Source: an uncultured Clostridia bacterium (GTDB taxonomy: Bacteria; Bacillota; Clostridia; TANB77; CAG-508). From it: a stretch of 32,000 nt of DNA. The notes under the pieces were generated by a model. It was not told the DNA's origin, did no database searches, and saw only the letters and a program-made list of their open reading frames with translations. The first letter of the stretch is position 1, and each line of letters opens with the position of its first letter. The position numbers and the translations under genes were made by a program. Positions 22,979-24,216 of this stretch are shown one piece after another. The stretch spans positions 13,944 to 45,943 of the forward strand of contig CAQYCU010000006.1 in assembly GCA_948919095.1 (NCBI GenBank). The letters run 5' to 3'.

Positions 22979-23027
22979 AAACAACAAAACTGGAATTTGC
23001 AATAGCAAATATCCAGTTTTGTTGTTT
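22979..23027 (-). terminator. strong intrinsic terminator of the HIT-like gene
   Basis: AAACAACAAAACTGGA (22979..22994) pairs with TCCAGTTTTGTTGTTT (23012..23027). An inner ATTTGC/GCAAAT pairing adds to this for about 22 bp with one bulge. On the minus strand the stem runs into TTTTTAAATT. Confidence 0.8.
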
Positions 23028-23045
23028 GCGGAAATTGGTGGTTGT

Positions 23046-24119
23046 TTAACGCCTAAAATTTTCTCTCTCGGGATAGCCTTTATAGAAAGCGCAGGTGCGC
23101 TTCTGGATACGGCTATCGAAGTTTGCAAAGTTACGCTTCAAGAAATGCCAGATTTGATACAGGGTAGCATGGGTATTCTCTTGGAAGTCATACTTACGCC
23201 AATTATACTGTAATGGTGTGAGTCCCAACTCTTTTGCCATGACCTGCCTCGGGTACTGCCTCTGAACATAGACACTATCGTCGTAGCAGCAGAACCTTTG
23301 ACCATGTGCGCCAACTTTGTAGGCAAAATAGTGTGTGTGCTTGGCAAGGGATAAATCATCTAGCGGTTTCATTTGGATTGCATCCAAGTACTGCTGCTTG
23401 AGTGTGAAGTCAATGACAACATGTGTATGAGCATGTACAATGGACTTTTTGTGCGATGTGAAGCCAGATGGACCACTCCCATGTTCCATAAATACCACTG
23501 GCTTGTCTTCTCCAAATGCGCCCTTCAAGATAGTTTCCACATCTTCGCATACTTGCTCGTACTCTGCATAGATATAGGGGTCATCGATTTGAGCAATGCT
23601 CAGATACTCGTGGTCCTTAGGGACAATCATCAGGTAGCCTGGCTTCAAAGCTCCCAGTTCGCATACAACATAGAAGTTGTGTGACTCATACAAAATGCAA
23701 TCAACTTCTTTTTCAACAGCTCTGTTGTAGTCAACTGTCTTTGTTGCAATGCCTTTGAGATGTGCAATCCCACACAGGATACAGGGCTGTTTTTTCGTAT
23801 CATACTGTTCCCCTGTAGAGCGTTCACCAGGTTCAAATCCGTGCTCATAGCACCACCTGGTAAATTCTTCGCTTCCATTGAAATACACACTTGTTGGTAC
23901 AGGAAGCATGTCTCCACGATACTGGTCCAGCAGTTCTTTGCCCATGTTACCGTTCTGGTAAAAGATAGGTGTCATGTTGCGACTGAATGCTTCTTCAATC
24001 TTTGCGGTCAAACTTGTCAGTTTGGTTGCCTTAATGCAAGTAATCGCTTCAAATTCACCTGCTTCGTTGTACACCTTCCGCCTGTCAGTTACAAGTAACC
24101 AACGTTTTTCTGTTATCAT
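23046..24119 (-). CDS. atypical extended HIT-superfamily protein (histidine-triad nucleotide hydrolase/transferase core with unassigned N- and C-terminal regions), compositionally foreign
   Basis: The 357-aa protein has SD GAGGAGG. PCILCG (C113, C116; 23769..23783) and HAHTHVV (res 229-235; 23415..23435) are the HIT CxxC and HxHxHxx motifs. The DNA is visibly richer in G+C and CpG than every other gene in the window. Confidence 0.75.
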   Translation of the reverse strand: MITEKRWLLVTDRRKVYNEAGEFEAITCIKATKLTSLTAKIEEAFSRNMTPIFYQNGNMGKELLDQYRGDMLPVPTSVYFNGSEEFTRWCYEHGFEPGERSTGEQYDTKKQPCILCGIAHLKGIATKTVDYNRAVEKEVDCILYESHNFYVVCELGALKPGYLMIVPKDHEYLSIAQIDDPYIYAEYEQVCEDVETILKGAFGEDKPVVFMEHGSGPSGFTSHKKSIVHAHTHVVIDFTLKQQYLDAIQMKPLDDLSLAKHTHYFAYKVGAHGQRFCCYDDSVYVQRQYPRQVMAKELGLTPLQYNWRKYDFQENTHATLYQIWHFLKRNFANFDSRIQKRTCAFYKGYPERENFRR

Positions 24120-24187
24120 AAAAGCACCTCCTCGTGTCGTAAATTTATAACAGATTTCAGCAAAGCATAAGGCTTCTTTGTAATTAA

Positions 24188-24216
24188 ATTATAACATTTT
24201 TTAACAATAAAGTCAA
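24188..24216 (-). promoter_or_regulatory. sigma-A type promoter dedicated to the HIT-like gene
   Basis: The minus strand reads TTGACT (24211..24216), then 17 nt, then TATAAT (24188..24193), about 60 nt upstream of the ATG at 24119. Confidence 0.65.

Follow-up and report, generated by a model that had tools for sequence, protein, structure and literature searches.

We analysed a stretch of 32,000 nt from an uncultured Clostridia bacterium (contig CAQYCU010000006.1 of assembly GCA_948919095.1, positions 13,944 to 45,943 of the forward strand; hereafter the window), in which a 357-codon open reading frame (ORF) on the minus strand encodes a protein of the histidine triad (HIT) superfamily and is far richer in G and C than the other ORFs. 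The HIT gene is an old resident of its locus and not a recent import, and its GC-rich synonymous sites appear, from sequence comparisons, to be a maintained family trait that is limited to the ORF. The best explanation of the whole, towards which we lean on balance, is a resident HIT enzyme with a phosphodiesterase partner and maintained GC-rich codons. The new elements are a branch of the HIT superfamily in bacteria, its conserved phosphodiesterase partner, and a GC-rich codon usage that is confined to the ORF and common to the family.

Composition, signals and residence of the HIT gene

The intact ORF has a GC content of 0.442 and a GC content at third codon positions (GC3) of 0.478, against 0.291±0.031 and 0.154±0.026 in the 22 other ORFs of the window (z = 4.9 and 12.4, respectively). 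A first-pass annotation, made from the letters alone, had described an abrupt switch to GC-rich DNA with many C- and G-ending codons, and the computed GC content and codon usage did differ from those of the flanking genes. Codon choice was altered for every amino acid and evenly along the gene: ATA accounted for 5% versus 57% in the other window ORFs and AGA for 11% versus 76%, while CTG rose to 32% from 1% and CAG to 65% from 13%. C-ending codons were increased about twofold or more, and G-ending codons (CTG, CAG, AAG, AGG) were enriched alongside them. The gene had also been called CpG-rich; its observed/expected CpG ratio of 0.61 lies within the range of the other window ORFs (0.14-0.85), so that this look is due to the higher GC content and to nothing beyond it. 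In 50-bp windows, GC fell from 0.46 to 0.34, 0.26 and 0.12 within 150 bp on the start-codon side and from 0.48 to 0.34 and 0.18 within 100 bp on the stop-codon side, which agrees with the earlier statement that the switch is tied to the ORF ends.

The gene and its expression signals are as follows.

23046..24119, minus strand: ORF for a three-part HIT-superfamily protein of 357 aa (homologues, dN/dS, AlphaFold model)
24188..24216, minus strand: sigma-A type promoter (TTGACT, 17-nt spacer, TGnTATAAT; 11 of 12 consensus matches plus an extended -10)
24120..24181, minus strand: 5' leader of about 62 nt (start site inferred), including the ribosome-binding site GAGGAGG at 24127-24133
22974..23027, minus strand: intrinsic terminator, a hairpin of about 22 bp (22979..23027) and then a T-run (ΔG -30.9 kcal/mol, z = -8.5; as stable in 0 of 200 shuffles)

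That the HIT gene is a self-contained transcription unit, as the first-pass annotation had read it, is supported: the layout of promoter, leader, ribosome-binding site and terminator is common to all 34 family loci examined, and 31 of them have a near-consensus promoter of this kind. The promoter is the same in the sister species at loci L009, L046 and L104. The terminator hairpin, which a pattern scanner did not detect, has arms with a perfect match of 16 nt; between the window and L009 two stem pairs are altered on both sides, and L046 and L104 have a hairpin of different sequence at the equivalent place. These strong signals suggest that the gene may be expressed constitutively at a high level.

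The leader is about 95% identical to that of L009, in a comparison in which the synonymous sites of the ORF are near saturation. A structured leader RNA was considered and dropped, since folding across loci was not significant (median z -0.1) and four related sequences showed no covariation; an Rfam scan of 22700-24500 gave chance-level matches only and none for the leader. In four related species, nucleotide conservation of 24030-24216 (promoter, leader and first 30 codons) is far above that of the remainder of the ORF, the fraction of identical synonymous codons being 0.73 in the first 30 codons against about 0.3 overall. A predicted helix, TCTGTTA/TAACAGA, encloses the ribosome-binding site and the start codon; it is invariant, so that covariation is uninformative there.

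The first-pass annotation had seen no integrase, transposase or flanking repeat. No mobility gene was present among the translated ORFs of at least 150 aa in the 14.4-32 kb part of the window, and none was adjacent to the HIT unit among the called genes of same-species contigs. A repeat does exist: the sole one that flanks the unit is an imperfect 28-nt direct repeat (22948-22975 and 24218-24245; 22/28 identical; core ATCATTATTT), one copy of which abuts the terminator and the other the -35 box. It was rejected as an insertion scar, being equalled in 6 of 200 shuffles and missing from the sister species L009.

At least eight contigs of the window species have this protein at the corresponding position. 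In every relative examined, the HIT gene lies directly upstream of the orthologous phosphoesterase, no search having been aimed at empty sites, and the histidine phosphatase gene stays adjacent wherever the contig extends to it. The two neighbours in the window are listed first, followed by three relatives.

21961..22797, minus strand: downstream calcineurin-type metallophosphoesterase, 278 aa (Pfam Metallophos; GC3 0.183)
24262..24840, minus strand: upstream histidine-phosphatase superfamily protein, 192 aa (Pfam His_Phos_1, E 2.9e-32)
L104: HIT protein 86% and phosphoesterase 76% identical; GC3 0.43 in the HIT gene, 0.12-0.14 in the flanks
L009: HIT protein 79% and phosphoesterase 81% identical; GC3 0.53 in the HIT gene, 0.12-0.16 in the flanks
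L015: HIT protein 54% and phosphoesterase 58% identical; GC3 0.42 in the HIT gene, 0.14 in the flanks

Since synteny and GC3 excess persist together at 86%, 79% and 54% identity, and since divergence is about as large in the HIT gene as in its neighbour (79% versus 81% amino-acid identity in L009), the gene is an old resident. A scan with one genome per species extended the excess to the family: in 31 of 32 loci, nearly all from uncultured Clostridia with flanks of 24-30% GC, the GC3 of the HIT gene (0.18-0.57) exceeded that of flanking ORFs by z>3. JGI metagenomes provided 56 further loci, 50 of them with usable flanks, and in 46 of these the HIT gene was more than 5 points of GC above the flank. 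In all, the flanks of about 90 loci have 24-35% GC, and no GC-rich host of the family was found among them. The search for a reservoir covered 5.8 billion proteins, 185,000 species genomes, JGI metagenomes, IMG/VR, phages and plasmids; phage tblastn, IMG/VR and BFVD gave no relative, and plasmids gave one distant Rhizobium match only.

One locus differs in its surroundings. In L013 (GCA_024712465.1, 113-16892), which carries a 57%-identical homologue, the region has 36% GC and seven other ORFs with elevated GC3 (0.31-0.60), several of them with no Pfam match on record, and the gene downstream of the HIT gene encodes an EamA transporter, not a phosphodiesterase. This region may be a mosaic or an island.

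Apparent maintenance of the GC-rich codons and exchange of alleles

The GC3 of the HIT gene is about 0.55 in each of L037, L039 and L042, which are near saturation in dS pairwise. When synonymous changes between strong (S, G or C) and weak (W, A or T) bases were polarised with an outgroup, the S→W and W→S counts were balanced (30:37, 19:25, 38:29 and 46:41); this would fit a maintained composition and is suggestive only. The per-site W→S rate was 0.15-0.58 in the HIT gene and 0.05-0.13 in the flanks. In the HIT family tree, alleles of high and of low GC3 are interspersed, and sister alleles may differ sharply (L024 0.29, L025 0.51). In a sister family (about 35% identity, 341-349 aa) GC3 is 0.25, 0.20 and 0.41, against about 0.10, and at the sister-family locus L109 the GC excess also covers the co-transcribed histidine phosphatase gene. 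Of the 447 flanking ORFs with 100 or more codons in 34 loci, only about 16 exceed a GC3 of 0.28, and seven of these belong to the mosaic locus L013.

The HIT gene is under purifying selection (dN/dS about 0.07-0.12). Diversifying selection was dropped as a candidate, because the dN/dS of about 1 that had pointed to it belongs to antisense ORFs. These ORFs, full-length with 344-383 codons, run across the HIT gene in five loci.

L028:9971-11053, minus strand: antisense ORF (ORF calling)
L037:2780-3868, minus strand: antisense ORF (ORF calling)
L039:9986-11107, minus strand: antisense ORF (ORF calling)
L042:2243-3277, minus strand: antisense ORF (ORF calling)
L043:9971-11122, minus strand: antisense ORF (ORF calling)

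In view of this dN/dS they are probably a by-product of a sense gene that would lack TTA, CTA and TCA codons.

Alleles have evidently moved between lineages. The HIT gene is less diverged than its syntenic flanks in L019/20 and L030/32, and three- to fourfold more diverged, in both dN and dS, in L021/22, L034/35, L037/39/42, L017/21 and L018/23. At L045 the HIT protein is 34% identical to the window protein and the phosphoesterase 68%. In the window species, the block of histidine phosphatase, HIT, phosphoesterase and Big_14 genes is 99-100% identical to that of strains L001-L004, next to an ftsH of 91.6% identity. The recombination boundary lies between ftsH and the histidine phosphatase gene (24262-26702). 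Protein identity to other strains is 90% for PBP1A, 91% for CysRS and 79% for DUF1189, and the intergenic stretch 21630-21960 between the phosphoesterase and Big_14 genes is 85% identical in five strains, both flanking genes being above 99%.

These data bear on four accounts of the composition. In the one proposed in the first-pass annotation, a foreign cassette with a single gene has recently come in from a donor of higher GC content and lodged between two native genes, where it may serve in phage defence or in immunity to an antibiotic. The sharply bounded GC3 anomaly (z-score 12) fits such a cassette, as do the autonomous promoter and terminator, the weak 22/28 repeat that flanks the unit exactly and the recently recombined block that spans the locus in the window species. 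However, in relatives at 86%, 79% and 54% identity the orthologue shows the same anomaly and again precedes the orthologous phosphoesterase gene, the two neighbours are conserved partners and not chance flanks, the repeat is not kept in L009, and the searches revealed neither a GC-rich host in about 90 loci nor phage, plasmid or viral copies. The import reading is thereby weakened to the point that we consider it highly improbable. Its defence or immunity part fares no better, as no PADLOC family matched and the neighbours are housekeeping genes and phosphoesterases, with no defence genes nearby. In another version the locus is old and the unit from promoter to terminator has repeatedly been swapped from an unsampled GC-richer reservoir. 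The excess or deficit of HIT divergence relative to the flanks in the locus pairs named above, the discordant identities at L045, the nearly identical block beside ftsH and the unequal GC3 of L024 and L025 are all in line with such swaps; yet no reservoir emerged from any database searched, the hosts all have 24-35% GC, the HIT tree largely agrees with partner type by clade, and exchange among AT-rich hosts only cannot by itself keep the HIT gene GC-rich. We therefore regard recurrent replacement as unlikely.

A third possibility involves no selection on the transcript: GC would be raised by gene conversion biased towards G and C, or by some mutational oddity of a very heavily transcribed, recombining locus. 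Frequent recombination, the raised per-site W→S rate and the GC-enriched, co-transcribed phosphatase gene of L109 speak in its favour, but biased conversion is disfavoured because the GC excess stops with the ORF, sparing leader, terminator and the ends of neighbouring genes, while the recombination tracts include neighbours; an increase of 0.2 to 0.4 in GC3 is also, to our knowledge, larger than the usual bacterial effect. This possibility is improbable in our view. Selection at the level of the ORF, acting on transcript stability, translation or expression, is the maintaining force that we favour, tentatively.

Architecture of the HIT protein and its likeness to CWF19 proteins

The window protein has 206 full-length homologues at 45-86% identity, nearly all unnamed, and an exhaustive search gave 614 relatives at E<=1e-3, many of which are of 200-230 aa and match residues ~135-325 only. 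Members of the family have about 340-370 aa, are uncharacterised and were found in these searches only in AT-rich metagenome-assembled genomes of gut Clostridia. Conservation, the Pfam census and the AlphaFold input were based on 44 sequences. The AlphaFold model of the window protein (pLDDT 91.4, pTM 0.89) has three parts.

23805..24119, minus strand: N-terminal domain, residues 1 to ~105, small Rossmann-like alpha/beta fold (AlphaFold model; alternation of strands and helices)
23400..23798, minus strand: catalytic HIT lobe, residues ~108-240 (invariant motifs; Foldseek)
23049..23399, minus strand: C-terminal lobe, residues 241-357, CwfJ_C_2-like (weak Pfam match; fold matches)

The first-pass annotation had recognised the HIT motifs correctly. 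C113 and C116 of the CxxC motif PCILCG (nt 23772-23783) are invariant in the 44 homologues, as are K225, S226, H229, H231 and H233 of KSIVHAHTHVV, in which the triad lies at nt 23415-23435, and K168 and H170 of an (I/V)VPKxH motif. KSIVHAHTHVV and (I/V)VPKxH are canonical HIT motifs as known from Hint1, the former corresponding to QSVYHVHLHVL in that protein. In the N-terminal domain E24, N48, P51, F95, E96 and G98 are invariant, and in the C-terminal lobe Q286, Q288, R291 and Q292 of a QRQYPRQ motif and Y305-N306-W307-R308. Modelled alone, the N-terminal domain has a pLDDT of 88; its best matches in the PDB are de novo designed P-loop/Rossmann folds at E>=0.05, with no informative neighbour.

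In sequence searches the window protein had no match to Pfam HIT (PF01230) even at E<=10 and none to CwfJ_C_1, and its match to CwfJ_C_2 (residues 257-317; E=0.043) reached 15.1 bits where 28.8 are required. Nothing above threshold came from NCBIfam, from PADLOC or from the PDB by sequence, with classical HIT enzymes in the PDB at E 0.15-3 only, and PHROGs gave one family whose function is unassigned there (phrog_23000, E 2.6e-6). Other members are closer: 26 of the 44 match Pfam HIT at E<=0.01 (best 2e-6), and scores of 23-33 bits, above the cut-off of 21.5, occur in more distant relatives. DcpS_C was matched in 8 of the 44 members and, below threshold, CwfJ_C_1 (PF04677) in six and CwfJ_C_2 (PF04676) in three; one relative has a sub-threshold GalP_UDP_tr_C match.

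The six best PDB chains for the model by Foldseek (8ro2_L2, 8ro1_L2, 6id0_U, 3jb9_c, 8ro1_L1 and 9l5r_U) are all CWF19L2, Cwf19 or CWF19L1, at E 1.9e-8 to 6.2e-6 and probability 1.0; Fhit, Ap4A phosphorylases and Hint follow at about 1e-3, and the probability is also 1.0 for Fhit, Hint1/2, Rv2613c and bacterial HIT proteins. The predicted structure thus shows the two-lobed shape of CWF19L2, Cwf19 and Drn1, with a HIT lobe and a CwfJ_C_2-like lobe. The resemblance to a CwfJ_C_1 plus CwfJ_C_2 arrangement that had been proposed in the first-pass annotation therefore stands by fold, but remains below the Pfam gathering scores by sequence.

The CWF19 family and the window family share the two-lobed HIT-like core and appear to have in common a Cys-x-x-Cys, clustered histidines and, in the second lobe, a W-R motif, where the WRK of the window protein aligns with C. 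elegans CWF19L2. The residues required for the function of yeast Drn1 (CWF19L1 in human) are C269, C272, H366, R459 and W474 (PMC4105757); the spacing of R459 and W474 is 15 and that of R291 and W307 in the window protein 16, a comparison made without direct alignment to Drn1. A metallophosphoesterase is linked to both groups, by gene adjacency in the bacterial family and by fusion and partnership in the eukaryotic one: Drn1 has a metallophosphoesterase-like domain fused to its CwfJ domains and stimulates the metallophosphoesterase Dbr1 (PMC4105757). The two differ in that the bacterial family has a complete HxHxHxx triad, unlike CWF19 proteins, and a Rossmann-like N-terminal domain in place of the pseudo-phosphoesterase, zinc finger or RNA recognition motif of the CWF19 family; the spliceosome context exists only on the eukaryotic side.

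With Fhit, Hint and the Ap4A phosphorylase Rv2613c the window protein has the catalytic lobe, CxxC and (I/V)VPKxH in common, and covalent His-nucleoside monophosphate (NMP) chemistry would be expected alike in both. Those enzymes are homodimers of 110-200 aa with one lobe per subunit, whereas the window protein, at 357 aa, has a second lobe attached and an N-terminal domain. The GalT/Apa2 branch is likewise two-lobed in a single chain. The GalT-type triad is HxHxQ, as against HxHxH in the window family, and Apa2 (4i5v_B) aligned over 254 columns at E 2e-3 with a TM-score of 0.24-0.29 only. No full-length alignment to the GalT branch accounted for either extension, the N-terminal domain being left over. 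Similarity to DcpS, the best viral fold match (BFVD) at E ~4e-3 only, is limited to the HIT lobe, and the window protein lacks the N-terminal domain-swapped dimerisation domain of DcpS. The literature that we searched on bacterial CwfJ/HIT proteins and on HIT-pyrophosphatase clusters contained nothing relevant.

Partner genes, proposed function and significance

Of 91 loci, 85 had enough downstream sequence to judge the next gene on the same strand. It encodes a PF01663 protein in 70, a calcineurin-type enzyme as in the window in 10 and another protein in 5. The PF01663 partner is a type I phosphodiesterase/nucleotide pyrophosphatase (NPP) of about 384 aa, mostly 61-76% identical between lineages. 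Upstream genes vary, with 38 Pfam families over 26 loci including rpoC, pyruvate kinase, scpB and grpE. Two unrelated phosphodiesterase superfamilies in one position look like non-orthologous partner replacement, which suggests a functional pair with the HIT gene. Phosphoesterase orthologues of at least 58% identity shared contigs with the HIT gene where this was checked; the enzyme resembles YfcE and Mre11, not Dbr1. Its gene in the window has its own promoter (22830-22858) and native AT-rich composition. The histidine phosphatase is a probable third member: the order phosphatase-HIT-phosphoesterase of the window and L015 is HIT-phosphoesterase-phosphatase in L104, and this survival of the three-gene cluster through rearrangement counts for partner linkage. 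The sister family has PF01663 neighbours twice and a YmdB-type phosphoesterase and a histidine phosphatase once each, the last overlapping the HIT gene by 4 nt at L109.

Several further observations concern these neighbours. An identical +1 frameshift, an extra C after ...TATTATTCT, is present in the PF01663 gene of L031 (11093-12239) and L075 (7081-8227), one from an assembled genome and the other from an independent metagenome contig. This lineage has the lowest HIT GC3 (0.18 and 0.24), which may hint, from a single lineage, that the GC-rich codons decay once the pair is broken. More distant paralogues of the window phosphoesterase (51-57% identity) occur in defence-like or mobile contexts (L106:1706-4840, L107:1-4831, L108:1834-5939), among them AAA_21 with RloB, a restriction-modification system together with recombinases and an AAA ATPase, and ArdA/RadC/MazE beside another Metallophos gene; a 342-aa protein beside the paralogue in L107 was considered as a HIT relative and proved not to be HIT-like. 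The window gene for an S11 D-Ala-D-Ala carboxypeptidase (19247-20693) consists of two overlapping ORFs of 295 and 188 aa. In other strains (L001, L005, L006 and L008, ~5.6-13 kb), its 5' part is shortened to 84 aa, and an HTH_36 gene and type IV secretion genes (PrgI, TraG/VirD4-like, TrbL-like) come next; these strains of the same species thus seem to carry an inserted conjugative element at a distance of about 3 kb from the HIT gene.

By analogy with HIT chemistry, the enzyme would be a nucleotidyl hydrolase or transferase in which His231 attacks the alpha-phosphate of a nucleoside-5'-phosphoryl-X substrate to give a covalent enzyme-NMP, which water, phosphate or another acceptor would resolve. 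As substrates we would guess first at dinucleoside polyphosphates, NDP-X compounds or nucleotide adducts, and with less likelihood at RNA ends that are capped, adenylylated or 2'-5' branched. Judging by the neighbourhood, the enzyme may work with the downstream phosphodiesterase, of the NPP type (PF01663) in most lineages and of the calcineurin type in the window clade, with the histidine phosphatase joining in some lineages. The product or a related ester would pass to phosphodiesterase and phosphatase, so that a nucleotide derivative may be turned over or salvaged in the cytoplasm. Selection on transcript or translation would keep the codons GC-rich, with occasional exchange of alleles between lineages on top.

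A number of points weigh against this explanation. The window protein is below every Pfam gathering threshold and has TM-scores of only 0.35-0.42 to the CWF19 chains. Transcription of the HIT gene is separate from that of the phosphodiesterase gene, a strong terminator standing between the two; inherited synteny could therefore account for their adjacency, and the YmdB neighbour of L111 looks like housekeeping synteny with recA and spoVS. Housekeeping genes in the flanks for which good expression is the norm (genes of rpoB/C size, recA, secA and guaA/B) have ordinary GC3, and therefore high expression alone cannot account for the GC-rich codons; translational selection for preferred codons was set aside on the same observation and because G- as well as C-ending codons are enriched. 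The polarised-substitution test is a parsimony test, biased in skewed compositions, and the flanks themselves have a W→S excess. Divergence of the HIT gene relative to the flanks is very uneven (0.3x to >4x), and allele import is real and could contribute to the composition.

A role in RNA processing resembling that of Dbr1 and Drn1, in which the HIT protein and the metallophosphoesterase or NPP enzyme act on 2'-5' branched, 5'-capped (Np4N, NAD) or 5'-adenylylated RNA, seems quite unlikely to us. CWF19-family proteins are the best structural neighbours, a metallophosphoesterase adjoins the HIT gene in 10 loci and one of the YmdB type does so in the sister family, and Drn1 provides a precedent in its fusion architecture and its stimulation of Dbr1 (PMC4105757). 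The bacterial phosphoesterase is YfcE/Mre11-like and not Dbr1-like, however; most loci pair with the unrelated PF01663 enzyme, and no RNA-binding domain was detected. We know of no catalytic activity shown for CwfJ domains. A bolder combination is a bacterial counterpart, possibly an evolutionary relative, of Drn1/CWF19-Dbr1, in which a CwfJ-type HIT enzyme, itself catalytically competent, would act together with a phosphodiesterase. Its targets would be RNAs with a 2'-5' branch, a cap or an adenylylated end, such as lariats of group II introns or damaged ends, and its GC-rich codons would be selected for a stable, translatable transcript when A/U-rich messages or tRNAs for A/U-ending codons are compromised. 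We offer it as a long shot; if true, it would be a gene-specific case of composition as function that mimics horizontal transfer.

For the resident enzyme with a phosphodiesterase partner that we prefer, the consequences are more general. With a GC3 z-score of 12 and sharp edges, compositional methods would call the gene a recent horizontal transfer; as a syntenic resident, it is a counter-example. Whether its composition is maintained by transcript selection, by biased conversion or from a reservoir not yet seen matters for the use of amelioration clocks and island predictors. The two-lobed HIT architecture of the CWF19/CwfJ type, whose CwfJ domains have been familiar from splicing factors of eukaryotes, is here extended to bacteria, with an intact catalytic triad. 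The family is common in abundant uncultured gut Clostridia, where its members are annotated as 'hypothetical protein' or as a generic Ap4A/HIT hydrolase, and its two unrelated types of phosphodiesterase partner offer a tractable entry to the substrate of this HIT branch.

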